From the IMG/VR virus record IMGVR_UViG_3300017987_000047: a DNA stretch of 64,000 nucleotides. One strand, 5' to 3'. The translations under genes and the position numbers were made by a program. The notes under the pieces were generated by a model, which saw nothing but the letters and a program-made list of their open reading frames with translations, was not told the DNA's origin and searched no databases. Below, one piece after another: positions 2,465 to 63,868 of this stretch (position 1 is its first letter; each line of letters opens with the position of its first letter). The DNA is from a virus (taxonomy: Duplodnaviria; Heunggongvirae; Uroviricota; Caudoviricetes).

Positions 2465-3184
2465 ATGACGTTAAAGGGCCGGGTTATTCAAGATTTTCAA
2501 AAGTATATATCAAAAGACTTTTTAGGTAGCCTAGTCCAGCCTTATTTTGATTATGTTTTGGATCTGGACCCTTTTCCGGGATGGAAAGAAACTTGGAAAA
2601 AACTTAATAACTTAGATAATGTTACTATTTCGATGGAGATGGGCTACGCGGATTTCGAAAACCCCACCAGAAGATGCAGTCTTCTTTGTTTCGCTGTTAA
2701 CCCTATTTATATTCCCATTCATAAAAAGGATATCCCTAAGAATTGGATTTTCTTTGAAGATGCTATAACACACTACGATAAAAAGATTAATAGACTGTTA
2801 TGTAATATAATGGATGGGGTAAGGAGCAGGTGTAAAAAGTTTTTTACTAAACATTTTAATATTCTCTATAAAGCAGACCCGTTTCACTGGTCCTATATGA
2901 CTTACGTAAAAGAGAAAACTAAAGTGGAAGTAGAAGTAGAGGTCCCGTTGAAAAATTCTTGGCAAGACGGGACTTACGTAAGGGAAGAAATGGAAGTGGA
3001 AATGGAAGTAGAGGTCCCGTTGAAAAATTCTTGGCTATACCGAATAGCCTCCCTCTCGGATGATCTTGGATTTGATCTTTCACTATTTGAAGAAATTGAA
3101 GCAGACCTCCCCCGAGAAGCTTATCTAACATCTCAATACCCCTATTTAAGAAATCTTGCAAGAAAAGAGTTAGGATTAAAATAG
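2465..3184 (+). CDS. Hypothetical protein with C-terminal LT-x6-R tag; contains a 72-bp internal duplication
   Basis: C-terminus EAYLTSQYPYLRNLARKELGLK; EVEVPLKNSW occurs twice. Confidence 0.75.
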   Translation: MTLKGRVIQDFQKYISKDFLGSLVQPYFDYVLDLDPFPGWKETWKKLNNLDNVTISMEMGYADFENPTRRCSLLCFAVNPIYIPIHKKDIPKNWIFFEDAITHYDKKINRLLCNIMDGVRSRCKKFFTKHFNILYKADPFHWSYMTYVKEKTKVEVEVEVPLKNSWQDGTYVREEMEVEMEVEVPLKNSWLYRIASLSDDLGFDLSLFEEIEADLPREAYLTSQYPYLRNLARKELGLK

Positions 3185-3230
3185 CACATTAAAATCCCAG
3201 TTAATTACGATTCGCTATTTCTAATCCAAT

Positions 3231-3262
3231 TCTTTCGTTATTCAAAATAAAATCGTTATATA
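3231..3262 (+). promoter_or_regulatory. Phage promoter motif TCTTTCGTT-N17-TATATA
   Basis: One of 8 intergenic copies with identical 17-nt spacing. Confidence 0.7.
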
Positions 3263-3312
3263 TTTAGGGTTGAAGTTGCGCCAAAAGGAAATTACTTTTA
3301 GGAGAATTTGAG

Positions 3313-4257
3313 ATGATTAGGGTCTCAACAAAAACTCATTTTGTTTTATATGCCTATACTTATCCGGATAAAATCAAATTAGCAAAAGCAAATTTGAAAC
3401 TAAAGAAAAAAGAAAAAACAAAACTATCAATTAAAATTGGGGATACAATTCAAGGGGTCGATAAAAAGAAATCTGTAGAAGAATGTGCTTGGCTACGGAT
3501 GAATCAGCAGGGGGATGCTAACGAAAGCCAGAAAAAAATCTTATTTAAGGCATGGTTTATTGAAAAAACTTCGTACTTTCGTAGGGATAAAGATCTTCAT
3601 CGGGTACTTAAACAAAGAGGAATGCAACCAAAAGATGAATATGATGGCAAAGGGTGTGAATGGTTTAATATTTCTTACGACGGAACAAAAGAAAGCAGTA
3701 TTAAAGAAATTGAAGAGTTTATAACAAGGGTGCAAAAGAAAAACCCAAGGGAAATTCTCAGACTCGAACCACTTCAAGAGAAAAAGTTAAACCAATGTCT
3801 GCTTCTCATAGACCAATTTATACAAGAAGGCAGAAGTTCCGAAATTTGTAATATCATTGCTAATCTCTGCCCAAGATTTGGAAAAACTCTTTGGGCTTTA
3901 CGCCTATTCCAAGAACTTAATAAAAAATACGGGAATAATTTACTCCTTTTACCTGCCTATGCTCTTTCTTCCCATTCTTCTTTCGAGAAAGAAATTGATA
4001 AATACGAAGATTTCCGTAACATAAGATTTATTGATATTTATGAGGAAAATTATGATTTGAAAATGGAAGATACCCTAAACTCTGGGGACCTAGCAGTTGT
4101 TTCAATTTCTTCTCATATTGATGAAGCTAAAATTGAAAGGTATTTAAAACCCATTAAAGATTACGATGATGATAAAAAGTTTGTTTTTATAGATGAGGGG
4201 GATCTGGGTATTTGGAAAGAACACGGACGCAAAGTCTTCAAGTATCTGTTTAAATAG
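3313..4257 (+). CDS. GIY-YIG/T5orf172-like nuclease plus SF2 helicase N-terminal half
   Basis: KIGDT...DKDLHRVL...EWF; Walker A CPRFGKT; Walker B IDEGD; ends at a TAG in frame with the next ORF. Confidence 0.7.
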   Translation: MIRVSTKTHFVLYAYTYPDKIKLAKANLKLKKKEKTKLSIKIGDTIQGVDKKKSVEECAWLRMNQQGDANESQKKILFKAWFIEKTSYFRRDKDLHRVLKQRGMQPKDEYDGKGCEWFNISYDGTKESSIKEIEEFITRVQKKNPREILRLEPLQEKKLNQCLLLIDQFIQEGRSSEICNIIANLCPRFGKTLWALRLFQELNKKYGNNLLLLPAYALSSHSSFEKEIDKYEDFRNIRFIDIYEENYDLKMEDTLNSGDLAVVSISSHIDEAKIERYLKPIKDYDDDKKFVFIDEGDLGIWKEHGRKVFKYLFK

Positions 4258-4269
4258 AAAGCGAATTAC

Positions 4270-11752: not shown

Positions 11753-12337
11753 ATGGCATTTACCTGCATTAAAATAATTGATAGCCAGGTTAGAATCCAA
11801 CATGGCTTTCGGATTCTTCTTTTTTACCAGAACTCCCAAGGCTGGAAGAAACTTTTCGTTAAACTTGACGAGAAAGTGCAATCTTGGGTATATTTAGAGT
11901 TTCAAGCTGGAATCTGCCAACTATTAACTCACTCCTTACCTGAAGTGCGGCAACTAGCAAAGAAGATAAACCAAAGGGGCTTTGAATATTTTGATGCCTT
12001 GTGGGATTTACGCTTTGAATTAGGCCCTCAATGCTATACTCAATTCAAAGCAAGGGGGGATACTCTTCTTTATTACGTGAGGCATAAACAGGAGAAGATC
12101 TTTTTTGACCCATATTTAGGCCCAGCTTTGACAGGACCGACAGGACTGACAGGTTTGACAGGACCGACAGGACCGACAGGTTTGACACCAACAGGCCGTC
12201 TCAGCTCAAAAACACCTAATCTTTCTCCTCAAATTTTAAAACCCCAGAAAAAACAAAGCCCCTGTCTTCAAAACATTGGCCCTGCAGCCCCTTCACGAAG
12301 TCGGGGAATATGGCAAAAGATATTCCGGAGAAGATAG
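11753..12337 (+). CDS. Tagged protein (internal tag) with a collagen-like G-x-T repeat; paralog of 18103..18459
   Basis: QLLTHSLPEVRQLAKK; TGPTGLTGLTGPTGPTGLT. Confidence 0.7.
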   Translation: MAFTCIKIIDSQVRIQHGFRILLFYQNSQGWKKLFVKLDEKVQSWVYLEFQAGICQLLTHSLPEVRQLAKKINQRGFEYFDALWDLRFELGPQCYTQFKARGDTLLYYVRHKQEKIFFDPYLGPALTGPTGLTGLTGPTGPTGLTPTGRLSSKTPNLSPQILKPQKKQSPCLQNIGPAAPSRSRGIWQKIFRRR

Positions 12338-12379: not shown

Positions 12380-12781
12380 GTGGAAAAACTGATCACGCCA
12401 ACAACGATGTACTTACTAACTTTTAAACAAAGCCCCTGTCTTTCCTTGACGGGTTGGGATGAAATCCTTCACTTCTTTAAGGATTATCCGACAAAGGACG
12501 AAATACGGATTTGTTTTCTCAAGGCATTGAAAGACTACATTCTCTATTATGATATGGATCCAAACAAGGTTGGGATTCGGGAAGATGCTTTTCGTAATTC
12601 TTTCACTTTAATTAATAAAGACAAAACTGAGAGAGTTTCAGAAGAAGGGGAGATTGTTCTTTTCGGGGATGTTCGCTTCTCAGTTGAAAAGGTTAAAACG
12701 GAAACATCGAGAAAGTTGGAATCATTTCTCACAGATGATTTTGCTTGTATTCGTAAATTCGTTAAGGGGCTAAAAGATTAG
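12380..12781 (+). CDS. Tagged hypothetical protein
   Basis: C-terminus ESFLTDDFACIRKFVK. Confidence 0.7.
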   Translation: MEKLITPTTMYLLTFKQSPCLSLTGWDEILHFFKDYPTKDEIRICFLKALKDYILYYDMDPNKVGIREDAFRNSFTLINKDKTERVSEEGEIVLFGDVRFSVEKVKTETSRKLESFLTDDFACIRKFVKGLKD

Positions 12782-13443: not shown

Positions 13444-13992
13444 ATGAAATATAAAACAAACTATCTCATAAGATTTGAATTCCTACTATTTAACCAAAAC
13501 TTTTATTTTTCTAGGTTTCCGAAACAAAGGGATAAACTAGAAGCCGTTTTAACCTTCTGTAATTATCTATCCGGGGTATGGGATAAAAAAATACTTTCTT
13601 TTAATCTTAAGGACTCCAACTTAGAATCTTTTCTTAGCACCCCCACGGTTGGAGCTGGGAAAGTTTACCTAAGACGGCTAGTGCCACCTTTTTATAATTA
13701 TTCTACCAAGATTTCTTGGTCGTTAGAGCTTCGACAAGTTAGCACCGACTCTAGGAACCTTAATCGCCCAGCTTCCTTAAAAACTTTTTTAACCGTTGGG
13801 TCCGCTGAGCTGCGAAAACTTGTTAAATCTTGTATAAGGGGGACGACGATGAAATGTAAAGAGAACCCAAACCAAAGTTATTGGAATCTTCGGTTTACCC
13901 AAACGAAGCCAAGAGAACAAGGTTGGGGTAAGGATAAGAAAAGTTGGGCGGCAGCCCCTATCCGTAAAAAGGTAAAAAACTTATGTACTTAA
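13444..13992 (+). CDS. Tagged hypothetical protein, probably fused to a downstream small ORF
   Basis: KTFLTVGSAELRKLVK; second ATG with an AGGGGG SD at 13849. Confidence 0.6.
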   Translation: MKYKTNYLIRFEFLLFNQNFYFSRFPKQRDKLEAVLTFCNYLSGVWDKKILSFNLKDSNLESFLSTPTVGAGKVYLRRLVPPFYNYSTKISWSLELRQVSTDSRNLNRPASLKTFLTVGSAELRKLVKSCIRGTTMKCKENPNQSYWNLRFTQTKPREQGWGKDKKSWAAAPIRKKVKNLCT

Positions 13993-14295: not shown

Positions 14296-14853
14296 ATGAA
14301 TAAGCATCTCTCAAAATACTTAACAGCGGATAATCCTCTTTTAAGAAACTGGGTTAGGGAGAGAATTCATAGGACTGACCAGAGATACGAAGTTATCGAA
14401 GATGTTATTCATTATATTCCTAAAGAGAATCAGTATGTTTGGGGATGGGTGGATATTCAATTTTTTCGGGTTAGAGAAGAAAAAAAGCAAAAAGTTATCT
14501 ATTGTGATTTCTTGAAATGTAATAATTGTCTTTTAGCTTCTCTTCCGGCTCTTCCGGTTTGTAGGAAATTGCACTGTGATAGTAACCGGCTAACTTCCCT
14601 CCCGGAGCTTCCTGTTTGTGAGATTTTAATCTGCGACTACAACCAATTAACTCTCCTTCCGGCTCTTCCGGCTTGTAGTATTTTGCAATGTGATAGTAAC
14701 CGGCTAACTTCCCTCCCGGAGCTTCCTGTTTGTGTAGAGTTGCATTGCACGGGCAATAAATTAATGAAACTTCCAAAACTTCCCTCGATTAACGAAGATC
14801 TCTTGTTCTATGGGAATAACCCTGGTTATGGTACTCCGGGGTTTTACAAATGA
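14296..14853 (+). CDS. Leucine-rich repeat protein with an N-terminal tag
   Basis: 20-aa LRRs (LxCxxNxLTSLPELP); N-terminal KYLTADNPLLRNWVR. Confidence 0.85.
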   Translation: MNKHLSKYLTADNPLLRNWVRERIHRTDQRYEVIEDVIHYIPKENQYVWGWVDIQFFRVREEKKQKVIYCDFLKCNNCLLASLPALPVCRKLHCDSNRLTSLPELPVCEILICDYNQLTLLPALPACSILQCDSNRLTSLPELPVCVELHCTGNKLMKLPKLPSINEDLLFYGNNPGYGTPGFYK

Positions 14854-15278
14854 GCCGACATCTTTCTCTAGAAGCATTTTCTTCCTTCAACTATGGGGAT
14901 TTACTTGTTCTTAAGGGGGAATTGTCCTGGTATCCCCCGAGCATGGATTTTAAGAACATTGAAACGGAGTTGGTTTTCTTTTATTCTTCAAGTACTAATA
15001 TTAAGATAGGTAGTTACCCCACAATTTTCGTTCGTCCTTTCTATCCGCAGCAGAAACATCCGAAACATCCGGATTTAAGGTTATCTGGTTTTGCTAGTAG
15101 GCATTATTCCATAGATATGCTTTCAGAGGTGGAGCTATATGATTTTGATAGGCATCTAGAGGCTAACCAAAGCCTTAAAACCCTTCTCACACAAAATTTT
15201 AAGGAATACCTAACTCACAAACACTTTGATATCCGGAAGTTAGCAAAAAGATACGCAAAGCACGTCTCAACCACTTAA
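14850..15278 (+). CDS. Tagged hypothetical protein
   Basis: EYLTHKHFDIRKLAK. Confidence 0.75.
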   Translation: MSRHLSLEAFSSFNYGDLLVLKGELSWYPPSMDFKNIETELVFFYSSSTNIKIGSYPTIFVRPFYPQQKHPKHPDLRLSGFASRHYSIDMLSEVELYDFDRHLEANQSLKTLLTQNFKEYLTHKHFDIRKLAKRYAKHVSTT

Positions 15279-15940: not shown

Positions 15941-16301
15941 AGAAAAGCTGAGGGAAAGGCTTCGTAAACACGATCGAACGATCTTTTTCGTTAAATACGA
16001 CTATCTCCTCGAACATCATTACTACCTCATAAGGAAGGAAAGCATCTATATACTTTGGGCTGGTTGCGATATCTTCGATGACCTTAATAGGAATCACCTT
16101 GGCTCTATTTTCCAGGAAGAACTAATAACTGGACTTGAAAAAGCAAGGTCTTCGGGTTCTTGGGAAGCCCCTAAGGACCCTAGCTATTCACACAGTATTG
16201 AAAAACTAGAAATTCTAGATCCCAGGGCATGTCTCACAAATAAAAGCAAGGCTGTGCGTAAGGCTGCAAAATATTGCTTAGGAGAAAAAAATTATGATTG
16301 A
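15927..16301 (+). CDS. Tagged hypothetical protein
   Basis: ACLTNKSKAVRKAAK. Confidence 0.75.
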   Translation: MRIDREKLRERLRKHDRTIFFVKYDYLLEHHYYLIRKESIYILWAGCDIFDDLNRNHLGSIFQEELITGLEKARSSGSWEAPKDPSYSHSIEKLEILDPRACLTNKSKAVRKAAKYCLGEKNYD

Positions 16302-18102: not shown

Positions 18103-18459
18103 ATGGCGTTTACAAACATTACCGTTATTGAGAATAAAATTCGTATCCAATCGGGATTTCGTATTCTCTTCCTTTATAAAGTATCCCAAACGAAAATAAG
18201 GTCGTTTTTCATTAAGAGCGAAGTTCCGATACAGGGTTGGGGTTTTTTAGAGGTTCATTCTGGAATCTCCCGGCTCCTAACTTGCCCTTCATTTAAGGTC
18301 CGGCAGCTTGCAAAAAAGATAAATGAAAGGGGCTTTGGGTATTTTGACGCCTGGTGGGATCTAAGATTTGAGTTAGGCCCGCAACACTATACTCGATTTG
18401 GGGCGGGTGGGACTGATCTTTGGTACTCAAAGGCCCAACCGGAGAAAGGTTATGCTTAG
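18103..18459 (+). CDS. Tagged protein, paralog of 11753..12337
   Basis: MAFTNI..IRIQSGFRIL...RLLTCPSFKVRQLAKKINERGF.YFDAWWDLRFELGPQ. Confidence 0.75.
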   Translation: MAFTNITVIENKIRIQSGFRILFLYKVSQTKIRSFFIKSEVPIQGWGFLEVHSGISRLLTCPSFKVRQLAKKINERGFGYFDAWWDLRFELGPQHYTRFGAGGTDLWYSKAQPEKGYA

Positions 18460-19854: not shown

Positions 19855-20301
19855 ATGCTACCTTCTAAAGGGCTAGAGGAATCCCATAATATTTTTGAAT
19901 GCCTCTTATCCCCGGCAGAGCAAAAACAAGTAATGTCCCAAAAAGGAAAGCTGACGGGGCTTCATCCAACATATATGGAGAAAGGTTGGGTTTCCCACGG
20001 TTTTCTTTTCGGAATGTCCTGGAGAAAGAGTTTGGCCTCCGCCTTGGCCTTTGACGAAAAACATTTTCTTTTCCTAGCCTGGGGCCCCTTAGCACTAGAC
20101 CCAACAAGGTTTAAACTAACGATCGAGACCCGGAGTTCTTTGATCCACGAAGAATATGTTGTTGATAAAAAGGACATATTAGACCACGCTAAAAAAATCG
20201 GTCTGAATAAAGCAACGTTTGCTTCTTTTCTCACCGGCAAAGATCCCCTAGCGCGGCATCTCGTTAAAAAATATTGCATTCCTCTTTTTGATTTAATATG
20301 A
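19855..20301 (+). CDS. Tagged hypothetical protein
   Basis: SFLTGKDPLARHLVK. Confidence 0.72.
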   Translation: MLPSKGLEESHNIFECLLSPAEQKQVMSQKGKLTGLHPTYMEKGWVSHGFLFGMSWRKSLASALAFDEKHFLFLAWGPLALDPTRFKLTIETRSSLIHEEYVVDKKDILDHAKKIGLNKATFASFLTGKDPLARHLVKKYCIPLFDLI

Positions 20302-20618
20302 AATATACTTTCTTCAAAATAGTGAAGGAAATCCCTCGGGCATTAGCATCACAACCTTTTTCTGGTTCCCCTCTTATGGCTGTTCGGGTTACCGAAGACA
20401 GCGTTCTAATTTTAGATAGAGTATTAGTTTGGAATAAGACGCCGTATGGCCCAGGCTATACGTGGAATACCTTAGATAATAAGTTGATTATCAAACCCCA
20501 TTGGGAGGAAGTTCCCTTAGAGGCTTTTCTAACTTCTCGGCATTCTAGAGTAAGGGCCGTAGCGAAAAAAGCGTTTGAAGTTGGATTCGACTCTGTTTTT
20601 CTCCCCCTGGAGTTCTAA
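20298..20618 (+). CDS. Tagged hypothetical protein
   Basis: AFLTSRHSRVRAVAK. Confidence 0.72.
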   Translation: MKYTFFKIVKEIPRALASQPFSGSPLMAVRVTEDSVLILDRVLVWNKTPYGPGYTWNTLDNKLIIKPHWEEVPLEAFLTSRHSRVRAVAKKAFEVGFDSVFLPLEF

Positions 20619-22274: not shown

Positions 22275-22622
22275 ATGGAATTTCAAAATAATATCCGAAG
22301 CCTTTTAACTAAGCTTGAAGAGTGGTTAGGGGATGAAGGGAAAGCTCATTTCCAGGAATACTACGATAAATACCAAACAGTCTCCCCTGTAATAAGCGGC
22401 AAAATCCCTCATCCTGTTCATTTTCGGGAAGGGATGCAAATCCGAAATTACTTGAGAAAACAAAAAGAGTGTGAAGAATGGGATGACCCCACTTTAGATG
22501 ATAGCTGGGTGATTCTCATTGAAGCAGTTGTTCTGGGGCATCATAAAGACCCAGAGGCCTTAACGCACGAAATTCCTTTAATTCGGGCAATTTCCAAAGC
22601 ATGGAACCCATGTATAAAATAA
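22275..22622 (+). CDS. Tagged hypothetical protein
   Basis: PHPVHFREGMQIRN.LR core; EALTHEIPLIRAISK. Confidence 0.72.
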   Translation: MEFQNNIRSLLTKLEEWLGDEGKAHFQEYYDKYQTVSPVISGKIPHPVHFREGMQIRNYLRKQKECEEWDDPTLDDSWVILIEAVVLGHHKDPEALTHEIPLIRAISKAWNPCIK

Positions 22623-22960
22623 CCTTTTCGAGAAGAGGAATTGGGGAAGAGCAAGTTTATCTTCTTGAAAATTTTCCATCTCGAAAACAAATTGCGGCCC
22701 TGTTTTTACGGTACTTAAAATTTGCTAGGACAGGATGGCAGACGCTTATCAGCTCCGAATATTCTGCAGACTCTGAACTTTCTGGTGGGTTCTTTTGTCG
22801 TTTTGCTTCTGACGGCGGCATTGCGGCCTGTGAAATTATGTATTGGATTGAATTGGCAAAAGGCGAGAGCCCTAACCTTGAACTGTACCTCACTCACGAA
22901 CGGGAAGCTACCCGAAAAGCTGCTAAAATCATTTTAAAAGGATTAACGCCCAAATGTTAA
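22601..22960 (+). CDS. Tagged hypothetical protein
   Basis: LYLTHEREATRKAAK. Confidence 0.75.
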   Translation: MEPMYKITFSRRGIGEEQVYLLENFPSRKQIAALFLRYLKFARTGWQTLISSEYSADSELSGGFFCRFASDGGIAACEIMYWIELAKGESPNLELYLTHEREATRKAAKIILKGLTPKC

Positions 22961-23859
22961 GTTTATTTAAGAGACATCATAAAGAGCTTGATCGAGTTAG
23001 TATTACATACGAACCCCGTATTCGCTTCGATCAAAAGTATGAGCTTGCTTTAGCAAAATTTGATATCCCGAAAGACCTATTACTTAATTTCCCCGGCTTC
23101 CCCTTTGGGGGTTTTGTTCGAGATACTTTTCATTCAGACACTCCAAAGGACTTAGATCTCTTTTTCATTAGCGCAGTAAATATTAGGGCAGTTGCAAAGT
23201 TTCTGAAACAGAAGGGTTGGGTGTCTCAAGAATCGCGGCGGATAGATTCATGGAAATGGGGAAGCTATAGTGAAATAATTAGGAGGAAGTCGGGGTATGT
23301 AAAATGTTTTACTAAGCATGGGCAAAAAATCGACTTATTCTTTAAGTACGATATGATTTCTGCCAAGGAAGAGCTAGTCTTACTAGCACAGGCATATGCC
23401 TGGGACTTAAGCCTTGACCGCTTCTTCCTATGGGCAGACCCAGTATCCGAAGGTCGCCCGAGCTGGAAAGAAGACCATTTACAAGATACGGAAGACTCTG
23501 TTTTGAAGCAGCTCTCTTCTAAAAAACTTTAACTTAACCGGGAATACGCGAGTTGGTTAACAATAAAGGATACTGAGGCTATAAGGATTCAGTCTGAATA
23601 TCTTAAGGAAAAGATTCAATCTCTTCTTCAAAAAGGTTGGGACCTTGAACTTGGGAAAAGTAATATTTTTGGAAATCGCTTGCTACTCCCAAAGGCAAAG
23701 GTTGAAATCATTAAGATGCTCCCAGAAAAAACAGTTCGGGCGCATCTTTCAACCTATTTGACCCACGCGTCGCCTAAGACGCGACTAAAAATAAAAGACA
23801 TTCTGCGAGACTACCATCCGGAAATCGTTGCGAACTTCCTACATAAGAGGAATGCTTAA
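22954..23859 (+). pseudogene. Pol-beta/poly(A) polymerase-type nucleotidyltransferase with an in-frame TAA at 23530; C-terminal tag
   Basis: FGGFVRD...DLDL; the frame continues for 108 codons after the TAA with KIQSLLQKGW and TYLTHASPKTRLKIK. Confidence 0.7.
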
Positions 23860-25199: not shown

Positions 25200-25597
25200 T
25201 GAAGGTCTTTGAAGCAAAGACAATTAAAACCCACCCCCACCGGGATAGCCCTTTCTGCTGGGAAACACCCTTAGCATATAAAGCATTAAGTGACGAAGAG
25301 TTTATCTTCTTGGGCTTACTAAAGTCCATAGAAAAACTTGGGGAAGAAGACAGTATAATATCCTATAAAATCTGTACTGCACATAATAATCAAGGGAGTT
25401 TAACTATCGTAGAGACTATTATTGAGGGCCGCTACAAATTCGGATATTCGTTTTGGATTCAATCCTGGATAACCTATAGACCTAAGTCTATTTTTACCCC
25501 AACGCCCGTTGAGGATGCCCCTAACCTTCAGCAAGGTTTAACATCCAAATACCCCTTAATTCGGCAATACGTAAAAATGAGATTAAAGAATGATTAA
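25199..25597 (+). CDS. Tagged hypothetical protein
   Basis: QGLTSKYPLIRQYVK. Confidence 0.72.
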   Translation: MKVFEAKTIKTHPHRDSPFCWETPLAYKALSDEEFIFLGLLKSIEKLGEEDSIISYKICTAHNNQGSLTIVETIIEGRYKFGYSFWIQSWITYRPKSIFTPTPVEDAPNLQQGLTSKYPLIRQYVKMRLKND

Positions 25598-27023: not shown

Positions 27024-27443
27024 ATGTTTGCATCGTCCCAAAAAACTCTTAGGCTAACACAAAGTTTCCCCTTTAAAACGAAAATTATTGCCCAACTTTG
27101 GGGCCATTCTTATAATAATTTAGTTTATGAGCAACCCCTGAATAAGATTCCTTATCGAAAGGACTTAGCCCCTCTTATTCTTGCTATTTTGGAAGTTTAT
27201 AAATCCTCCAAGGACTTGGAAAAGCTAGTTAACATAGAATTAAAAACTTCCGTTCTCCTACAAGCCGAAATTATACTTGACTATGGGGTTGATTCAGAGT
27301 ACTATACCTTAAATATAGTAAAAATAAAAGAAGAAGAGGTTCTCCCGCTTCCCCGGATAGAAAATTACTTAACAAATAAACTTCCCATTTTTCGTCGGGT
27401 AGCAAAACAAGTTATTAAAAAGAGGGATAGCGAGTATAGTTAG
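27024..27443 (+). CDS. Tagged hypothetical protein
   Basis: NYLTNKLPIFRRVAK. Confidence 0.75.
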   Translation: MFASSQKTLRLTQSFPFKTKIIAQLWGHSYNNLVYEQPLNKIPYRKDLAPLILAILEVYKSSKDLEKLVNIELKTSVLLQAEIILDYGVDSEYYTLNIVKIKEEEVLPLPRIENYLTNKLPIFRRVAKQVIKKRDSEYS

Positions 27444-41830: not shown

Positions 41831-42082
41831 ATGAAAATTCCAATTGAGAAGCAGCATAGATTATTTAAAAATGTAGGCTCTATCCCATATCTCTATTTTT
41901 CAAAATCCAGAGTCTATTCAATTGGAAAATCAGAACATGCTACCATATATCCGGCAAGGACGGCAACGGAGTACAAGGTAATGAAGGCCGAAGAAGAAGT
42001 CCCCCTAACTACTCTATTAACTCATCCAAGCCCAAAAATAAGGAAGTGGGCGAAGAGGGTCACTAACCAAAAAACCTCTTAG
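41831..42082 (+). CDS. Tagged hypothetical protein
   Basis: TLLTHPSPKIRKWAK. Confidence 0.78.
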   Translation: MKIPIEKQHRLFKNVGSIPYLYFSKSRVYSIGKSEHATIYPARTATEYKVMKAEEEVPLTTLLTHPSPKIRKWAKRVTNQKTS

Positions 42083-42681: not shown

Positions 42682-43056
42682 ATGTTTGAACCATATACAT
42701 TAGTGAAAATAAAGTTTATCCCTTCCTCCCCATACTCGGTTCAAAGAAAAGAAGAAGAGGAAATCGCCTTTGGAATTTTTAAAAGAATAGCGTACGGAAA
42801 ACACCGTAAAAGTAAAATGTCAAAAATGTATTTTGAAGTTGACACTATTATCCCTACCGAAAACTGTTGGAATTTTGGGGACTCCCCAGAATTTCTTGAC
42901 GATGCCCACCTTTCCCTTTCTAACTGTGACTTCGAGCAGCTTTCTTTTGACGCCGCTCCCGATTTTATTAAAGAACTTTTACTCTCCCCTACTGCACTAA
43001 CACATAAATGCTCGGGTATTAGAGTTTTGGCGAGAAGATTGCAAAATGCTATCTAG
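42682..43056 (+). CDS. Tagged hypothetical protein
   Basis: TALTHKCSGIRVLAR. Confidence 0.72.
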   Translation: MFEPYTLVKIKFIPSSPYSVQRKEEEEIAFGIFKRIAYGKHRKSKMSKMYFEVDTIIPTENCWNFGDSPEFLDDAHLSLSNCDFEQLSFDAAPDFIKELLLSPTALTHKCSGIRVLARRLQNAI

Positions 43057-43444
43057 ATTTCAAAGAAGAAAGGGAAATAGCGCCTGGTATAACTATATCC
43101 GGTTTAAGTCCTACCTTGCCATTCCTATCTTCCCAATACTATTAATATTAACTGGAATTTTTGTTCTTGTAACTTTTAGTTGTTTATACTTGGGTCGGCT
43201 ATACGAAAAAGTTAGGGGGTGTAATTGTTCTGGAAGTTGGTTTTTCTCATGGCCGTCACACAAGGATTATAACTACAACAACAAATGTCCTTACCATTAC
43301 GGGGTACTCCGAGCGAAAGAAGAGTTCGAGATATCTCTGGGGGAGGGGACAGACCCACGGGCCCTATTAACATCCCAAAATAAGTATATACGTAAATATG
43401 CTAAAAGGCACTTAAAGAAATGCGCACGTCAATCAGTGAAATAA
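43046..43444 (+). CDS. Tagged membrane protein with a GCxC...CPYH motif
   Basis: TM helix; GCNC..CPYH; ALLTSQNKYIRKYAK. Confidence 0.72.
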   Translation: MLSRFQRRKGNSAWYNYIRFKSYLAIPIFPILLILTGIFVLVTFSCLYLGRLYEKVRGCNCSGSWFFSWPSHKDYNYNNKCPYHYGVLRAKEEFEISLGEGTDPRALLTSQNKYIRKYAKRHLKKCARQSVK

Positions 43445-43770
43445 TTGGGTTTGCTATTTCGGTTATCCTTTCTGGCCTTTTTCCACAATATATTCTGGTC
43501 ATTATCCCCCTTGTGTTTGGTTCAATGATTCTTTATCAAAAATCCCACGGCTGTACTTGCTTTTCTTGGAATGCCTCCCTACCTGACCGGCGGGATATCC
43601 CATGTCCTTATCATAGCCAGCTCTACGCAAAGGAAGAGGTTAAGAATGCAGCAAAATCAGGGAGGGGTGCCATTACTTCTCTCCTAACATCCAAGAATAA
43701 GTATTTCAGGTCTGCCGCAAGAGAGTTTCTTAAGAAACACCCCTTAACCAAAGGAAAAGACAATGAGTGA
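43420..43770 (+). CDS. Tagged membrane protein with a GCxC...CPYH motif
   Basis: Two TM helices; GCTC..CPYH; SLLTSKNKYFRSAAR. Confidence 0.72.
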   Translation: MRTSISEIIGFAISVILSGLFPQYILVIIPLVFGSMILYQKSHGCTCFSWNASLPDRRDIPCPYHSQLYAKEEVKNAAKSGRGAITSLLTSKNKYFRSAAREFLKKHPLTKGKDNE

Positions 43771-49750: not shown

Positions 49751-50131
49751 ATGGTTGAAGTGGGTACAAAAGAATCAGAAATATATCTACTCATAATTGA
49801 ATCTCGCGAGTTCCCTCTACAGTATACGATTCCTTTAGGGCACTATCCGTCTGAGGAAGACATTAAAATATTAATTATGTCCTCTTCGGAAATGTTCACC
49901 GATGACCTTATCCTAGATATGGAATTTAGTTTTCAACCTACTAGATCGGGGATCTTGGTTTTAACATATAATAGTTCCCCCACTCTTGGGGAACTTCAGA
50001 ATCTTTATGATTTTTATCTCAAGAAAGAAGTAATTAGAAATTCTCCTTCCTTGGAGGCACTTCTCACACATAAACAGGCATTTATAAGAGAATACGCAAA
50101 GAAAAAGTGCCAAAAGGAATTAAATGTTTAG
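49751..50131 (+). CDS. Tagged hypothetical protein
   Basis: ALLTHKQAFIREYAK. Confidence 0.78.
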   Translation: MVEVGTKESEIYLLIIESREFPLQYTIPLGHYPSEEDIKILIMSSSEMFTDDLILDMEFSFQPTRSGILVLTYNSSPTLGELQNLYDFYLKKEVIRNSPSLEALLTHKQAFIREYAKKKCQKELNV

Positions 50132-50522
50132 ATTAATTATAGAGGGAGTCCCCTCCCAAATAACTTTTGAAGAATTCCCAGAACATGCGGAGTTGCTCCC
50201 ATACCTGATCTCTTATTTAGAAGAGCAATATTCTGTTAAAAATTGTGATGCAATTAATTTTTGCAAAATAATTTTAACGCGAGATTGTTATTCTGGATGC
50301 TTAGTATTAGTTTGGAAAGATGAAGTTTGCTGGGTTGCAGGAGCATTTGACAAGGAAGAGGACGTACCTTACGAATTGGTAGATACATCAGAGGAGAAGA
50401 ACGAGCCTAAGTATATAGTTGGGGTAGAATTTCAGCCCTTAACTATGTATCTAACACATGAAGCCGAAGCAATAAGAAAACTAGCGAAAAAAGTTTTGGA
50501 AAGACCGGAGATTGCCCAATGA
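50124..50522 (+). CDS. Tagged hypothetical protein
   Basis: MYLTHEAEAIRKLAK. Confidence 0.78.
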   Translation: MFRLIIEGVPSQITFEEFPEHAELLPYLISYLEEQYSVKNCDAINFCKIILTRDCYSGCLVLVWKDEVCWVAGAFDKEEDVPYELVDTSEEKNEPKYIVGVEFQPLTMYLTHEAEAIRKLAKKVLERPEIAQ

Positions 50523-51625: not shown

Positions 51626-52012
51626 ATGGATCTCTCGGGCATAAAAAGGTTAGAGCCCCTGCTAACTTCCCCTTGCTCATTTTTACGGGAGTTAGCAAAG
51701 GCTCTCAAGGCCCTAAAAGAAAAATTTGAAATTGCTCTTGATTTCCTTGAGCGGGGTTTGATTTCACCGGACTATGCATATCTTCGGTTAAAAATTATCC
51801 TTAAGCACAAAGAAAAAAAATATGAAACGCTTGTATATTTAGATACTATGACCCATTACTTAGGGAAGTCTAGCTGCTTTGCTATAGCCGATCCCCTATT
51901 AAAACATACATATGATTTTGTTTCTATTTCTTATATGAGGGCAACACTCAATTTTAGGCTTCGTAAATATGAAAAGTCCTTGGACCATAAAAAGCACAAA
52001 GTTAGTTTATAA
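51626..52012 (+). CDS. Protein with an N-terminal tag
   Basis: PLLTSPCSFLRELAK. Confidence 0.7.
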   Translation: MDLSGIKRLEPLLTSPCSFLRELAKALKALKEKFEIALDFLERGLISPDYAYLRLKIILKHKEKKYETLVYLDTMTHYLGKSSCFAIADPLLKHTYDFVSISYMRATLNFRLRKYEKSLDHKKHKVSL

Positions 52013-52510: not shown

Positions 52511-52927
52511 ATGTTAACTGAATATTTAACCCATTCCGACCCAGAGATAAGGATTAGCGTAAAAGCAGTAATAAGTCTTAACGAACTTAAGGAATTTAAT
52601 GAAGCTGATAAACTTTTAGAAATGCTAATTACCCATTCCATTAATTCTTATAAGACTATTTTAGATCCGAATTTAGGAATATATACTGATGAAATCCCCC
52701 CAGAACAATATTATGAACGTTACCAAGTCCTTGTTCAGATTCGAATAAAAACGGCTTTAGAAAAAATAAAGTACCTCAAAAATCAAGAAAAGGCTAAAGA
52801 AGAAAAGGCTAAAGAAGAAATTGTAGAGTATGAAGAAAAAAGAAGAAAGGCCCAAGAGCTTTTTGAGCAGAATATTAAGTGGCTAATTCTTGGGGCTTCT
52901 ATAATAATTGCTGCTCTTTTAATTTAG
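52511..52927 (+). CDS. Protein with an N-terminal tag and a C-terminal transmembrane anchor
   Basis: MLTEYLTHSDPEIRISVK; tail WLILGASIIIAALLI. Confidence 0.72.
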   Translation: MLTEYLTHSDPEIRISVKAVISLNELKEFNEADKLLEMLITHSINSYKTILDPNLGIYTDEIPPEQYYERYQVLVQIRIKTALEKIKYLKNQEKAKEEKAKEEIVEYEEKRRKAQELFEQNIKWLILGASIIIAALLI

Positions 52928-53835: not shown

Positions 53836-54273
53836 ATGCACCCTTACCACCAACCTAAACTTCTTTCAACGGTTTTCTTTGAATTTCAAAAATGGGTTCC
53901 CCTTTATGGGTTGGATTTCTTTTTTCCTCCATGCCTCTCTTTTTTTAAAGGAAGCTCGGATAAAACAGTCATCTTTCGGGTTGCTTGGCCCTTCTGTTTA
54001 GAATTTGATGTTGAAAACGAAATCGTCGGCCTCTATGGAAGATTTCAAATAGACACCCCTGTCTTAACTTTTTCTTCTTTCCTTAGCCTTGGTTTCTTCT
54101 TAAATTCCCCCAAAGCTTTTGTACAATATATTGTAATTGAACTCTATAACTTTTTTTGTGATGCCGCGACTTTGACACATTCTGATAAGCATGTTCGCGA
54201 TTGTTGTAAAAAATTTCGGGAAAGAATAAAGGAAGAAGATGTATCCAACTTACAGTGGTTTGCCAATCTTTAA
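53836..54273 (+). CDS. Tagged hypothetical protein
   Basis: ATLTHSDKHVRDCCK. Confidence 0.7.
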   Translation: MHPYHQPKLLSTVFFEFQKWVPLYGLDFFFPPCLSFFKGSSDKTVIFRVAWPFCLEFDVENEIVGLYGRFQIDTPVLTFSSFLSLGFFLNSPKAFVQYIVIELYNFFCDAATLTHSDKHVRDCCKKFRERIKEEDVSNLQWFANL

Positions 54274-54410: not shown

Positions 54411-54851
54411 ATGAAAAGAAAAATGTTAGAGAATGAAGCTCACCTTAGACTTTGCTTAGTCCTTGGAAATCCCCTTTATTTCAGCTTTCTCTGTTTGAGT
54501 AATGTTTCTCTTTTCATAAAAATCCCTATCTTAATTATAGGTTCGATTATCCCCCTTATAACATTATTATGCCTAGTAATGTTTGTTGTTTCTTTTTTCA
54601 GTATGGTTTGGGCAACTAGAAAAGGGTGTACCTGCTCTTGGGAGCTTGTTACTATGGAATTTAGTTATTCGAATTCTAGAGTAAAAACTTCTATTTTAGG
54701 AGTAACAACTATCATAGATTGCCCATACCATAGGGAAACACATGAAAAGGCGATTGTTAAAGCGTACGTTAAAAGGGAAAAGAAGGACCTTAAGTCCCTT
54801 CTCACTCATAAAAATGTGAGGGTAAGGCTTGCTGCAAAGAAATTACAATAA
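54411..54851 (+). CDS. Tagged membrane protein with a GCxC...CPYH motif
   Basis: TM helices; GCTC..CPYH; SLLTHKNVRVRLAAK. Confidence 0.75.
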   Translation: MKRKMLENEAHLRLCLVLGNPLYFSFLCLSNVSLFIKIPILIIGSIIPLITLLCLVMFVVSFFSMVWATRKGCTCSWELVTMEFSYSNSRVKTSILGVTTIIDCPYHRETHEKAIVKAYVKREKKDLKSLLTHKNVRVRLAAKKLQ

Positions 54852-54854: not shown

Positions 54855-55196
54855 ATGTTTGAACATAAAAAAACTATCTATAAGGCAACCCAAATTTTTG
54901 GGGATAAGAGCGAAGACGTATTAGGATACATTATCACCTATAAAAATGAAGATGAGTGGGAAATCGCTTATTTTGATACAGCTGTGGCAAAAGAAGAAAC
55001 ATCCTTGGAGGAGAAGCATAACATCCTATGGTTACAAGGTATAAAAGATTTTTACGAAAAAGGCGAAGATAAAGAACCCTTCTTTAAGGATTCAAAATAT
55101 AGATATGACGAGAGGTCCCTCACAGAATTCTTAACACACTCAAACACAAAATTAAGAGCCTTTGCAAAAAAATATAATGTTTATCCTGAAAATTAA
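54855..55196 (+). CDS. Tagged hypothetical protein
   Basis: EFLTHSNTKLRAFAK. Confidence 0.78.
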   Translation: MFEHKKTIYKATQIFGDKSEDVLGYIITYKNEDEWEIAYFDTAVAKEETSLEEKHNILWLQGIKDFYEKGEDKEPFFKDSKYRYDERSLTEFLTHSNTKLRAFAKKYNVYPEN

Positions 55197-55557
55197 TCAA
55201 ACCGGGCCTTTCGAGGCTACGGGGGAAGAGTATAGCTTCAACTTTCTTCCAACGAAGAAAGAAATTGTTGCCTGCTGCCTCTACCTCTTAATCGATGAGT
55301 GGCAAGGTGTTAGGTATGACCATAAGTTAGGGGTTTGCCCCGAAGAAATCAAGAATATAAAATTTCAAGTATACGACGAATGGTGTAGTATTATTCACCT
55401 ATCTTTTAAGAATCCACATAAAAGCCTTCCCAGAATAATGAAATGTGAAATAACTAGAGTTAGTCAAACCCCTGCTTGTTTAGAGCAATATCTAACCTCG
55501 CCCAGCTTGGGGCTGGCGATAAAACAATGGATGAAAGAGGAACTAGATGCTTCCTGA
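55162..55557 (+). CDS. Hypothetical protein with a degenerate tag
   Basis: EQYLTSPSLGLAIKQWMK. Confidence 0.62.
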   Translation: MQKNIMFILKINQTGPFEATGEEYSFNFLPTKKEIVACCLYLLIDEWQGVRYDHKLGVCPEEIKNIKFQVYDEWCSIIHLSFKNPHKSLPRIMKCEITRVSQTPACLEQYLTSPSLGLAIKQWMKEELDAS

Positions 55558-57483: not shown

Positions 57484-57957
57484 ATGGAAAAACATTATAC
57501 TTTAATCGCAGACACGTCTCAGGCAGGCTTTTGGGGCACCTCTCCAACTTATAAATGCCAAATTAAAAGGAAACCTCGCTTTACCGATTTGAAATTGTTT
57601 GGCTATCTTATAGCCAAAGACCTGGTAGCTAGATTTATCCTGGGCTCAATATCATATCCGAGGGTTGCTAAAGTCCAAGGGGATGTAAATAGCGGCTGGT
57701 TTGACGAATGTTATTCGTTTTTTGATTTTGATCGTTTTTTCGAGGATTGCCTAGCATGTGGAAGTACGCTAGTAATTGAAATTTCTGGCTTCAGAATCCC
57801 TATAAAAACTGAAATTGAATTTATTCTAAAATCCTTTAACATTTCTCAAGACCTTACCCACAAGAACGCCAATATTCGCAAAACTGCAAAAGAAATCCAA
57901 AAGGATGTTACGGAAGCGTCGTTTTACTTTACCCCTTTCCCAGAGACAACGCCATGA
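57484..57957 (+). CDS. Tagged hypothetical protein
   Basis: QDLTHKNANIRKTAK. Confidence 0.72.
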   Translation: MEKHYTLIADTSQAGFWGTSPTYKCQIKRKPRFTDLKLFGYLIAKDLVARFILGSISYPRVAKVQGDVNSGWFDECYSFFDFDRFFEDCLACGSTLVIEISGFRIPIKTEIEFILKSFNISQDLTHKNANIRKTAKEIQKDVTEASFYFTPFPETTP

Positions 57958-61313: not shown

Positions 61314-61975
61314 TGTCGAACTATAATTACGTAGTACCCAAGTGCGGAGAACTCCCTCCCCAAGAAGAGCTTAATGCTTTAATTAGGAAGATAGTTATAA
61401 GTCGGTTGCCCTGCTGGGGTCTTTCTACCGTTAAGGACTTAAATCGTTTCTTCGCTTGCTACAGCATCCAACATAAAACTTGGGAAACCGATCCCGAAGG
61501 GATAATTCTTTTCTGGGAAGACTCCTACCGCACTCCCGAATTTGAGGGTAGCAAGTTTAACTATCTTAAACATATTGTGGGGAAAAGAGTCCCATGCCTT
61601 GTTTTTGATCGGGGACCTGTAAGCCCATTCACCCGATTCATTAATAATGAAATACGGAAAAGGGTATGCCTTGAAATTGAAGCGTTTGATGTAGCAGACA
61701 CAGTTGATCTCTATCCCATAGAAAAGGAATTTAAGTTCTACGAAACCTTCTGGGACCAAGAAAAAACATATATTAGTAGCGAAAACCCACTCGAGATCAG
61801 TGGTCCCCTAATGAATAAATTGACCTGGGTATTAGAATCAATCGGAGAAGCACCCCAGGACATTTATAATCTTTTAGGGTTGCCCGATGGTATTCTTTAT
61901 CCTTTTCTGACCTCGGCAAGCCAAGAAGCAAGGAAAGCAGCAAAGAAAGCCCTAGAAAAAAGTGAAAATCCGTAA
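61313..61975 (+). CDS. Tagged hypothetical protein
   Basis: PFLTSASQEARKAAK. Confidence 0.75.
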   Translation: MSNYNYVVPKCGELPPQEELNALIRKIVISRLPCWGLSTVKDLNRFFACYSIQHKTWETDPEGIILFWEDSYRTPEFEGSKFNYLKHIVGKRVPCLVFDRGPVSPFTRFINNEIRKRVCLEIEAFDVADTVDLYPIEKEFKFYETFWDQEKTYISSENPLEISGPLMNKLTWVLESIGEAPQDIYNLLGLPDGILYPFLTSASQEARKAAKKALEKSENP

Positions 61976-62115: not shown

Positions 62116-62188
62116 GGTCCCATCGTCTAGTGGCCAAGGATACCAGACTGTCGATCTGGTGACACGGGTTCAAGTCCCGTTGGGACCG
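62116..62188 (+). tRNA. tRNA-Asp(GTC)
   Basis: Acceptor GGTCCCA/TGGGACC; anticodon arm CCAGA-CTGTCGA-TCTGG. Confidence 0.93.
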
Positions 62189-62193
62189 TCGTT

Positions 62194-62265
62194 AAGGGGA
62201 TAGTGTAATTGGTAACACAGGAGACTTTGACTCTCCTATTCTGGGTTCAAGTCCCAGTCCCCTTG
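62194..62265 (+). tRNA. tRNA-Gln(TTG)
   Basis: Acceptor AAGGGGA/TCCCCTT; anticodon arm GGAGA-CTTTGAC-TCTCC. Confidence 0.92.
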
Positions 62266-62326
62266 TCGCTTCTCAAGCCACCAAAATACTTTGGTGGTTG
62301 TTTCATGTTCCATCTGGAGAAAACCA

Positions 62327-63535
62327 ATGCGCGTACTTTTAGTTGGTGGTACGTTTGATAGTAATGGCGGGAGGGATTCTTCCATTATTGAGAAGCTTGC
62401 TAATGGGGTTATGCAGGAGCTAAGTCTCAAGCAAACGGGCTATTCCGAAGTTCCAGAAAACGGGGAAGAAACCGACAAGTTTTTACTTATCAATGGGGGG
62501 TTTCTCGACTATATTAGTAAGGTATTGGTTCAACCCCACCCTCTATCCCAGTTTGACGCCATTCTTTGGTTTGCGAATATTCTAGATAATAGCCTTCCTA
62601 AAATTGTTGAAGATATCAAAAAGATTAATCCAAAAATTCTCCTCGTGACTTCAAAAAGATGTGTTGAGAAGGATTATAACCGCGCCGATGTTATTTCTCA
62701 TGCCCTCAAAATTAAAAGCAACTTAATTCTTGAGATTCGGCGGGGAGGAACTCAATATAAAGGAGTTCTTCTAGACCCGCTTGGGAATACCTTTAAGCTA
62801 AAAGAATTAGCGGGAGAGGACTTTATTAACGACTCCTATGATTTTGAGCCTATCGGCAAAATAATTATCAGAAGACTTCGCGAGCTAGCAAAGTTCTCTC
62901 GTGTTGGGAGTAAACAGGTATCCCCAGAACCAATTGTTGCTGAAGGGGACCCGCTGTTCTTCGAAACTATAAAAAGTTCTGCCGATTTATTTGACTCTCT
63001 TCTTCCAACCCCAAAACATGTTGAGAGATTTTTAGGGAACGCTTCCTTCCGGTGTGGTAAGGGTTTTCCCTCTTTCCGAAAAGATAATCTAATCTTTGTT
63101 TCTCGAAGAAATATTGATAAGAAATACATCGGACCAGAAGGTTTTGTTGCTGTAGATCCTGATGCTTTTCCAGTACATTATTATGGTGAAAATAAACCGT
63201 CGGTGGATACTCCGATACAATTAATGCTTTATAACTACTATAAAAATGTAAACTACATGCTTCATGGGCATGTTCGGGTTGGGGCAGGAATCGGGTTAGG
63301 GTTAAAGGATAGAGAAAAAATCAAGGAGACTGGACACCCTATCCCGTGTGGAGCCATTGAGGAAGCAGCAGCGATTATTAGGACAGAACCAGATTTCACT
63401 AAAACTAATTTTATAGTTAATCTTAGTGGGCATGGTTTTATTGCACTTGCTAAGGAGCCTAACTTCCTCCATCGGATTTTAAGTGGGGGCCCTGGTATTT
63501 ATGGGGAGCGAGAAGATGAAACTTGGGAGGTTTAA
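62327..63535 (+). CDS. Protein with a C-terminal class II aldolase/adducin-like domain
   Basis: GNASFR, KPSVDT..Q..LY, LHGH and GHG metal-binding motifs. Confidence 0.7.
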   Translation: MRVLLVGGTFDSNGGRDSSIIEKLANGVMQELSLKQTGYSEVPENGEETDKFLLINGGFLDYISKVLVQPHPLSQFDAILWFANILDNSLPKIVEDIKKINPKILLVTSKRCVEKDYNRADVISHALKIKSNLILEIRRGGTQYKGVLLDPLGNTFKLKELAGEDFINDSYDFEPIGKIIIRRLRELAKFSRVGSKQVSPEPIVAEGDPLFFETIKSSADLFDSLLPTPKHVERFLGNASFRCGKGFPSFRKDNLIFVSRRNIDKKYIGPEGFVAVDPDAFPVHYYGENKPSVDTPIQLMLYNYYKNVNYMLHGHVRVGAGIGLGLKDREKIKETGHPIPCGAIEEAAAIIRTEPDFTKTNFIVNLSGHGFIALAKEPNFLHRILSGGPGIYGEREDETWEV

Positions 63536-63868
63536 ATGCCACTCGTTAGGATTGAAACTCTACTCACACACAAAAACCAAGCGGTGCGAAACTTGACCCA
63601 GAAGCTACTAAAGTTAACTCTAGATAATGAAGCATTGGTAGAAGAAACGTATTATAGTGACAAGTATCCTCTGGTCACTTTTTTCTGTATAAAAGATCCT
63701 CTCTTCAGCTATAGCATTCGCTTCATGCGCCATGCTCTGTATCTAGAGATCTTTGATCATAATAGGTACACACGCCCTAAAGGTTTCAAGGGGATCGGCG
63801 TAAAACTTAACGAAGGCGAAAAGATTATAGAAGCTCTTCTGGGCTTCACTCCGGTTGAAAGAAAATGA
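63536..63868 (+). CDS. Protein with an N-terminal tag
   Basis: TLLTHKNQAVRNLTQK. Confidence 0.7.
   Translation: MPLVRIETLLTHKNQAVRNLTQKLLKLTLDNEALVEETYYSDKYPLVTFFCIKDPLFSYSIRFMRHALYLEIFDHNRYTRPKGFKGIGVKLNEGEKIIEALLGFTPVERK

Follow-up and report, generated by a model that had tools for sequence, protein, structure and literature searches.

A stretch of 64,000 nucleotides from an uncultured tailed phage (IMG/VR record IMGVR_UViG_3300017987_000047, Caudoviricetes; the whole stretch is called here the window) encodes 37 proteins that share a short conserved motif (degenerate in two of them), called here the tag, in which a Thr preceded by Leu is followed, exactly seven residues later, by Arg. 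The longest public contig of this huge phage is 384,251 bp; in a 335-kb ENA contig the window starts at about position 121,417. By its sequence and predicted structure, the tag is a solitary unit of the HEAT_2/ARM type, about 20 residues long, consisting of a short helix, a turn and another helix. We put the chance that it is a docking module for a shared partner in trans just short of even.

The motif is real and occurs far beyond chance. The window is densely coding, with about 130 open reading frames (ORFs) covering 95.5% of its length, nearly all on the + strand; the pattern [LIMV]-T-x6-R-x2-[AVICT]-[KRQ] is found in 35 of them, and the tag is present on about one quarter of the window's small proteins. 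A strict regular expression of the motif matched 22 times in the three + frames and once in the three - frames. The profile hidden Markov model (HMM) of the tag scored 35 window ORFs at 20.4-37.5 bits, with the next best matches at 8.8 and 6.6 bits (ORFs starting at 55162 and 22275), against a top score of 6.0 bits in 20 shuffled proteomes; the six-frame scan of the window gave 35 matches on the + strand and none on the - strand. The 35 full copies and the two degenerate ones (Table 1) add up to 37, the same number of motif-bearing ORFs as had been claimed in an earlier note made from the sequence of the window, which had also remarked, correctly, that the copy at 55162 lacks the Arg. No window protein has more than one tag, second-best stretches scoring below 1 bit. 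Since the HMM was trained on those same 35 window copies, the independent check is provided by further tags outside: 14 in a 20.8-kb stretch that ends 1.7 kb upstream of the window (L004), eight in 20 kb of a second huge phage with 35% G+C and no DNA similarity to the first (L007), and others elsewhere (see below). Two untagged proteins of the window, encoded at 32316-33311 and 38966-39820, have a C-terminal domain in common, which is about 110 residues long and 34% identical between them; the N-L-T...R-K stretch within it scores 3.5 bits only, and is therefore not counted as a tag.

Copies from the window, the neighbouring DNA and other metagenomes were pooled into a set of 69 distinct tags. 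Thr (position 0) and Arg (+7) are present in all 69, Lys or Arg at +11 in 68, and Leu at -1 in 66; His, Ser or Asn occupies +1 in 61 copies, Ala or Val +10 in 59, and Pro +4 in 29, and hydrophobic residues are also found at -5, -2, +6 and +14. The Thr is always at least 14 residues away from the C-terminus, so that the unit was taken to extend from -5 to +14, and the consensus can be written as [ED]-x-[PS]-L-x-x-[LFY]-L-T-[HS]-x-x-P-x-[IV]-R-x-x-A-K-K-x-L.

Selection on the tag evidently acts at the protein level, as had been proposed on the grounds that the underlying DNA had diverged. Codon alignment indicates that all six Leu codons (CTA, TTA, CTC, CTT, TTG and CTG) and all six Arg codons (AGA, AGG, CGG, CGT, CGA and CGC) are in use at the respective motif positions, codon third positions hold almost no information, and the 60-nucleotide tag regions are at most 68% identical in pairwise comparison, with the mean of 43%. 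It follows from this codon diversity and low nucleotide identity that the copies are old and are held by selection on the peptide, without recent gene conversion. The same three observations rule out a DNA-level element, such as a promoter-like site, which had to be considered since TTGAC, when translated, can yield Leu-Thr.

The relationship of the tag to HEAT repeats emerges from database searches. In the search of 1.84 billion representative sequences with the tag profile, 24 passed the E-value of 1e-3, and the proteins retrieved were those of the phage itself, similar small proteins from metagenomes, and large bacterial HEAT_2 arrays (P0012, P0020 and P0023), each with 5-6 matching stretches built of L-T-D...V-R..A-A units. 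In the genome search, the unit that closes the HEAT array of a planctomycete membrane protein reached 28 bits; a rescan with the tag profile gave it 21.4 bits. The spacing between Thr and Arg is identical in the tag and in the array units retrieved, and designed ARM and helical repeats were the best matches of the tag in PDB. The resemblance to a single HEAT/PBS-lyase unit, suspected in the earlier note, is thus upheld by the common spacing and by the retrieval of true HEAT_2 arrays; its statement that HEAT repeats lack the fixed Thr has to be withdrawn, as true HEAT arrays hold L-T-[DH]...[VI]-R..A units, and so the Thr does not set the tag apart from HEAT. The tag shares with the HEAT_2, HEAT_PBS and ARM families (PF13646, PF03130, PF02985) the intervals between Pro, Leu, Leu, turn, [VI]-Arg, Ala and Leu, as well as the helix-turn-helix arrangement. 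What is unusual is that the unit stands alone, one per protein, at the chain end behind a linker rather than in a tandem array; that His, Ser or Asn mostly takes the place of the ladder Asp; that the Thr, the Arg and, with one exception among the pooled copies, the basic residue at +11 are fixed; and that it is carried by orphan proteins of phages. Matches to Pfam HEAT models stay below the cut-offs: among 35 tag segments, two matched PF02985, at E 0.06-0.14 and 12.9 bits compared to the cut-off of 23.5. The tag can therefore best be characterised as an orphan unit with its origin in the HEAT/ARM repeat class, without an array and below Pfam thresholds.

The AlphaFold2 model of the protein encoded at 22601-22960, built on an alignment of nine sequences, consists of a β-β-α-β-β-β domain, a linker with predicted local distance difference test (pLDDT) score of 46, and the tag, in which the short helix 93-98 and the longer helix 102-112, separated by the turn, are predicted with pLDDT of 84-87. 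The double-tag protein P0015, modelled without an alignment, reached pLDDT of 42, too low for the model to be used.

The carriers are diverse. Full-length Pfam searches gave no match below E 0.01 for any of 20 window carriers, and none at E up to 1 for 10 carriers; in PHROGs, no match of known function was found for any of 10 window carriers scanned. Six carriers in the window have predicted membrane helices: in those starting at 27509 and 52511 the tag is N-terminal and the membrane helix C-terminal, in the other four (33940, 43046, 43420 and 54411) the order is reversed, and the tag is always on the end opposite to the membrane anchor. The protein encoded at 14296-14853 has its tag followed by leucine-rich repeats read from the sequence, for which no Pfam match was found. 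An ankyrin-repeat protein with a C-terminal tag (P0027) is one of about 12 ankyrin paralogs encoded by another metagenomic contig, L002, the only one among them with a tag. A nucleotidyltransferase with the PolyA_pol head domain, encoded just upstream of the window (L004:206-1126), is tagged, and its paralog in the window (22954-23532) is not; the nucleotidyltransferase orthologs of both phages, 27% identical to each other, have the tag at the aligned position. Most pairs of carriers in the all-against-all BLASTP comparison align over the 20-26 residues of the tag only, and phmmer with the tag masked leaves just a few small groups above the decoy floor (E 0.003), from which it appears that the carriers are not one full-length domain family. 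The window enzymes CoaE, NadK, Thg1, ADP-ribosylglycohydrolase, FNR-like protein, radical SAM protein, Apyc1, SprT and HAD are untagged.

This largely agrees with what had been noticed before. Five window copies are N-terminal and three internal, as had been reported (one of the latter is in the ORF at 18058, which had been given the start at 18103), and the remaining copies are 14-40 residues from the C-terminus; the lack of tags in host-like enzymes also holds, for CoaE, NadK, Thg1, ADP-ribosylglycohydrolase and the FNR-like protein. Of the varied carriers that had been listed, the leucine-rich repeat protein and the membrane proteins are in place, and the tagged nucleotidyltransferase is outside the window, upstream of it. 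The carriers do differ in architecture, as the earlier note had it, though they are not all unrelated (see below). The clear cases of shuffling are the N-terminal copies, the membrane-end rule, the leucine-rich repeat and ankyrin proteins, and the nucleotidyltransferase with its untagged paralog; judging from sequence comparison, they show the tag to be a portable module that is used across architectures and at both termini.

Two other observations on carrier families can be added. The protein at 11753-12337 continues after its internal tag into a collagen-like, low-complexity Gly-Pro-Thr-rich tail that is not found in its paralog at 18058. Contig L002 (JGI 3300027863), possibly from a related phage, contains, at 8879-17747, about a dozen ankyrin-repeat genes together with genes for WD40 proteins (three), a Csx3-like protein and a DUF2201 protein.

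Tags are evidently conserved across divergent huge phages, at least two in number, and are rare outside of this lineage. The 8 kb downstream of the window contain one weak copy, two of the eight tags in L007 are in tandem, and tagged small proteins are found on eight other short metagenome contigs (ENA, Logan and JGI). When the tag or family 1, the largest group of related carriers, was used in word-indexed searches of proteins, the phage's own proteins and two outsiders were all that came back. GenBank phages had no megablast match to 15 kb of the window, and tblastn with NadK gave distant matches only; in IMG/VR, a degenerate DNA pattern of the tag hit three loci, at the level of chance, and a 544-aa protein had no match. 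Two of the 205 Planctomycetota genomes matched the tag profile, one with a true array and another with a solitary unit at the C-terminus of a membrane protein. The latter is a 304-aa protein of genome G069 (L099), which ends in a tag-like unit scoring 22.9 bits, or 17.5 bits on rescan, so that solitary units may exist in the candidate host phylum too. Our literature search found no description of a solitary, proteome-wide HEAT-type unit in phages.

How might such a unit work? In a normal HEAT array, each unit buries its hydrophobic and polar faces against the next one, whose Asp pairs with the Arg of the first. The tag has no neighbour in cis, and its Asp is mostly replaced, which is why we propose docking in trans. 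Attached by a short linker, acidic or rich in Pro, to the N- or C-terminus of the protein, depending on which is free, the hairpin would expose a hydrophobic stripe (Ile/Val, Ala and Leu) together with an invariant polar patch at the turn (Thr, His/Ser, Arg and Lys). With these it would dock on one common surface, the simplest candidate being the open face of some helical-repeat protein encoded by phage or host, so that more than 100 fast-evolving accessory proteins, including leucine-rich repeat and ankyrin binders, membrane proteins and the RNA nucleotidyltransferase, would be tied to one hub, in a logic akin to that of F-box or PRANC adaptors. The binding itself, the identity of the partner for all copies, and the kind of partner are what we infer.

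Several results weigh against docking on a shared partner. Paralogy beyond the tag is detected by BLASTP for 11753/18058 and for 43046/43420/54411. Family 1, with at least nine members, has a shared N-terminal motif; leave-one-out profiles link the proteins at 22601, 12380, 31303 and 49751 and repeatedly recover those at 27024 and 55162, while two external seed members, P0028 and P0030, failed the leave-one-out and, together with 50124, are placed by alignment only. A sizeable share of the carriers are thus paralogs, and some of the tag's spread is due to descent, not to shuffling. Within paralog pairs the tag is conserved only slightly better than the rest of the protein (35-65% compared to 30-54%). 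Eight of the 69 pooled copies are internal, the others being C-terminal (47) or N-terminal (14). In the order of its elements the family-1 model is longin-like, to which weak Foldseek matches only point, none in PDB reaching E 1e-3; in such an order the last two helices could pack back on the sheet. Finally, no HEAT-array hub was detected with the HEAT-unit profile in about 105 kb of non-overlapping phage DNA and 20 kb of the second phage, the positive control (L098) giving five units, and no partner of the tag was identified in the DNA read. The claim of the earlier note, that the motif is a portable recognition signal recruiting proteins to one partner, is supported in part: the motif is a portable module, given its use across architectures and at either end, the selection at the protein level, the presence in the second phage and the position kept in the distant nucleotidyltransferase orthologs, and the recruitment to one partner is conjectural.

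The relationships just described are also what would be expected if the tag were a structural cap inherited by descent, i.e., if the carriers were one large, fast-diverging expansion in which the hairpin, having no partner in common, packs on the domain of the protein that carries it. Most carriers measure 100-150 aa, and their tag is located 14-30 residues before the C-terminus; expansions of one module are known in jumbo phages, such as the lineage-specific expansion of a small zinc ribbon, with about 35 copies, in Bacillus phage G (PMC7824862). An intramolecular cap would nevertheless have to be accommodated N-terminally, C-terminally and internally, and on leucine-rich repeat, ankyrin, nucleotidyltransferase and membrane proteins, some of which have untagged paralogs. 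The search with masked tags reveals no general relatedness of carriers above decoy, and the iterated family-1 profile recruits no further members. The low confidence of the predicted linker is not suggestive of tight packing either, and intramolecular packing by itself would hardly account for the full invariance of Thr and Arg on scaffolds so varied. All in all, we regard the cap as unlikely.

The exposed faces that we propose for docking could, instead, bind each other. HEAT/ARM repeat units are unstable alone, and their faces are normally buried against neighbours; lone units might stack, Arg against the polar turn of the next unit, and so bring the tagged proteins of an infected cell together in a single mixed assembly or matrix. 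Relatives with two tags exist, one of them in tandem with a 22-residue period (P0015; the others are P0010, P0011, P0013 and P0018), and no separate hub has been found in the DNA read. On the other hand, it would be hazardous for a phage to let one quarter of its accessory proteome polymerise without limit, and two-tag proteins are rare. A predicted complex of a full-length carrier (A3) with a tag segment (A1), scored at 0.00 without controls, is neutral as to tag-tag binding. We give this arrangement little probability.

A shared partner of a different sort would be an AAA+ unfoldase, for example ClpC, that recognises the tag as a degron or handle and removes early accessory proteins, or the targets held by them, on schedule. 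The preference of the tag for chain termini would suit engagement by an unfoldase, ClpC acts via adaptor proteins (as established for MecA and McsB), and the second tag-bearing phage has a full-length ClpC ortholog (L007:14535-17072; 842 bits to B. subtilis ClpC), adjoined by genes for GlnRS and a CbbQ-type ATPase. This ClpC has no match to the UVR domain that is present in nearly all of its 120 listed homologs, and it is nearest to ClpC of Planctomycetota, with 52-56% identity, a weak hint at a Planctomycetota host for the second phage. Yet no ClpC of the 384-kb phage is among the 120 best relatives of the L007 protein, the argument is one of gene presence in one of the two phages, and a structured hairpin of 20 residues with internal copies is unlike known degrons. 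Recognition by an unfoldase thus seems quite improbable.

Slightly less probable still is the reading that the turn and the helix start form a site for a phosphate-bearing ligand (nucleic acid, lipid head group or phospho-protein), or a target of a kinase or ADP-ribosyltransferase that switches all carriers together. The residues that are invariant, Thr and Arg, and the near-invariant Lys/Arg would be apt for either role; the phage has an ADP-ribosylglycohydrolase, with a WGR-PARP protein encoded just downstream of the window; and about 15 kb upstream of the window a vWA gene, a PP2C-like gene, a tagged 107-aa gene and a gene for a 554-aa protein are clustered (L004:2719-7100), the tagged gene being within the vWA-PP2C-kinase part at 4358-7100. 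The invariant Thr makes a link between the tag and this vWA/PP2C-like cluster possible. The case is drawn purely from residue chemistry and gene presence, and huge phages without the tag commonly have enzyme sets of this kind as well. Lastly, a signal for packaging into the virion and ejection, or for import into a phage compartment, both entertained in the earlier note, would fit the very large genome (384 kb) and the precedent of shared short peptides that send proteins into the heads of T4 and phiKZ-type phages, but is disfavoured, and made very unlikely, by the six membrane-anchored window carriers with the tag at the opposite end, by the mostly C-terminal and sometimes internal position of the tag, by the untagged enzymes, and by the number of carriers, which exceeds 100 across the genome.

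Comparison with known systems helps to place the docking module that we propose. F-box, SOCS-box and poxvirus PRANC proteins similarly join a short terminal helical box to a variable part that may consist of leucine-rich or ankyrin repeats, and have undergone large lineage-specific expansions, in a virus too; the combination of terminal box and interaction domain is seen in the N-terminally tagged leucine-rich repeat protein and in P0027. The tag, however, has no sequence similarity to these boxes (no Pfam match), most of its carriers are not repeat proteins, and we know of no hub of the Skp1-cullin type in bacteria. The capsid-targeting sequence of T4 and the propeptides of phiKZ-type inner-body proteins resemble the tag in that one short peptide serves as an address on several different phage proteins; they are N-terminal and cleaved, and their cargo is soluble, whereas the tag is mostly C-terminal, structured, far more numerous and found also on membrane proteins. 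With the zinc ribbons of phage G the tag shares the occurrence of one small module in dozens of copies per huge phage genome, but the zinc ribbon is the protein's own domain, and the tag is an appendage on different scaffolds.

Table 1. Copies of the tag in the window. Positions are those of the window; Thr is the residue number of the invariant Thr; family 1 is the group of related carriers discussed in the text.
ORF (length, aa)	Tag	Strand	Place in protein	Thr	Score (bits)	Remarks
2465-3184 (239)	3113..3172	+	C-terminal	222	24.0	
11753-12337 (194)	11912..11971	+	internal	59	30.3	paralog of 18058; Gly-Pro-Thr-rich tail
12380-12781 (133)	12716..12775	+	C-terminal	118	21.1	family 1
13444-13992 (182)	13777..13836	+	internal	117	20.4	
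14296-14853 (185)	14308..14367	+	N-terminal	10	21.9	followed by about five 20-residue leucine-rich repeats
14850-15278 (142)	15198..15257	+	C-terminal	122	31.7	
15927-16301 (124)	16221..16280	+	C-terminal	104	25.2	
18058-18459 (133)	18265..18324	+	internal	75	26.7	paralog of 11753
19855-20301 (148)	20218..20277	+	C-terminal	127	23.8	
20298-20618 (106)	20517..20576	+	C-terminal	79	23.5	
22275-22622 (115)	22548..22613	+	C-terminal		6.6	degenerate; Ser in place of Ala, with Thr, Arg and Lys retained
22601-22960 (119)	22877..22936	+	C-terminal	98	25.0	family 1; modelled with AlphaFold2
23680-23859 (59)	23746..23805	+	mid-ORF	28	26.1	
25199-25597 (132)	25526..25585	+	C-terminal	115	27.4	
27024-27443 (139)	27357..27416	+	C-terminal	117	22.9	family 1
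27509-27874 (121)	27512..27571	+	N-terminal	7	32.8	predicted membrane helix at protein end (hydropathy)
30960-31301 (113)	31242..31298	+	C-terminal, closes protein	100	28.8	
31303-31650 (115)	31582..31641	+	C-terminal	99	31.7	family 1
31653-31946 (97)	31851..31910	+	C-terminal	72	29.1	
33940-34434 (164)	34360..34419	+	C-terminal	146	23.9	two predicted N-terminal membrane helices
36190-36714 (174)	36640..36699	+	C-terminal	156	25.6	
37057-37431 (124)	37294..37353	+	40 residues before C-terminus	85	25.9	
41831-42082 (83)	42005..42064	+	C-terminal	64	37.5	top-scoring copy
42682-43056 (124)	42985..43044	+	C-terminal	107	21.2	
43046-43444 (132)	43355..43414	+	C-terminal	109	29.0	predicted N-terminal membrane helix, Cys/His (zinc) motifs; paralog of 43420 and 54411
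43420-43770 (116)	43672..43731	+	C-terminal	90	25.6	membrane family of 43046
49751-50131 (126)	50051..50110	+	C-terminal	106	30.9	family 1
50124-50522 (132)	50439..50498	+	C-terminal	111	32.4	family 1, by alignment only
51626-52012 (128)	51650..51709	+	N-terminal	14	20.7	
52511-52927 (138)	52514..52573	+	N-terminal	7	26.1	predicted membrane helix at protein end
53836-54273 (145)	54160..54219	+	32 residues before C-terminus	114	26.1	
54411-54851 (146)	54789..54848	+	C-terminal, closes protein	132	24.2	membrane family of 43046
54855-55196 (113)	55119..55178	+	C-terminal	94	28.8	
55162-55557 (131)	55480..55545	+	C-terminal		8.8	degenerate; Arg replaced by Lys after two-residue insertion; family 1
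57484-57957 (157)	57841..57900	+	33 residues before C-terminus	125	29.4	
61313-61975 (220)	61895..61954	+	C-terminal	200	23.6	
63536-63868 (110)	63551..63610	+	N-terminal	11	29.6	

Other genes of the window and its surroundings belong to several functional groups. There are 14 transfer RNA (tRNA) genes in four clusters (534-1300, 48798-49492, 51510-53109 and 62038-62267), and near the tRNA clusters are a Thg1 homolog (47834-48544) and a HAD_SAK_2 domain of RNA-repair type (40553-41071), which together suggest a sizeable phage kit for tRNA supply and repair. An ADP-ribosylglycohydrolase and an Apyc1-type anti-Pycsar metallo-β-lactamase (55547-56404, 57954-58796) are clustered with the WGR-PARP protein, which is encoded 3 kb beyond the window end (L093:13777-15096); this group looks like a set for counter-defence and ADP-ribose signalling. 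The ORFs 3313-4257 and 4270-6873, both on the + strand, are in the same frame with a lone TAG between them (4255-4257); the second has matches of N6-methyltransferase/Eco57I type and is followed by a further N6_Mtase fragment (6870-7424). This may be a large enzyme of restriction-modification type, either interrupted by the amber codon or read through it. A full TnpB gene, with HTH_OrfB_IS605, OrfB_IS605 and Cas12f1-like TNB domains, is located on the - strand (34479-35672), opposed to the flanking + genes, and no close relative of it was found in the species genomes searched. DNA-metabolism genes start within 8 kb downstream of the window. Identity with Jug phages, which have 27-30% G+C, was rejected.

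Most genes of huge phages are small orphans that offer no handle for study. In more than 85 kb of the DNA read here, about one quarter of such orphans share one invariant structured module. The repeat class, HEAT/ARM, is itself known; what our results suggest as new is a shared docking or address module that was made from this known repeat type and is used as a solitary unit. Even as a mere conserved cap, the tag would still mark one of the most extensive lineage-specific expansions known from phages. Should it prove to be a docking handle, it would be a rare case of a lone repeat unit turned into a portable interaction module, and a ready tag for synthetic recruitment; a single tag bait could then identify the hub, and give more than 100 proteins a common pathway. 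In its fullest and more doubtful form, which we offer tentatively, the proposal amounts to a tag-and-hub system on the scale of the proteome, in which the orphan HEAT unit would plug more than 100 accessory proteins into a hub acting on host targets, as a bacterial-virus counterpart, with a different fold, of the F-box/cullin or PRANC logic.

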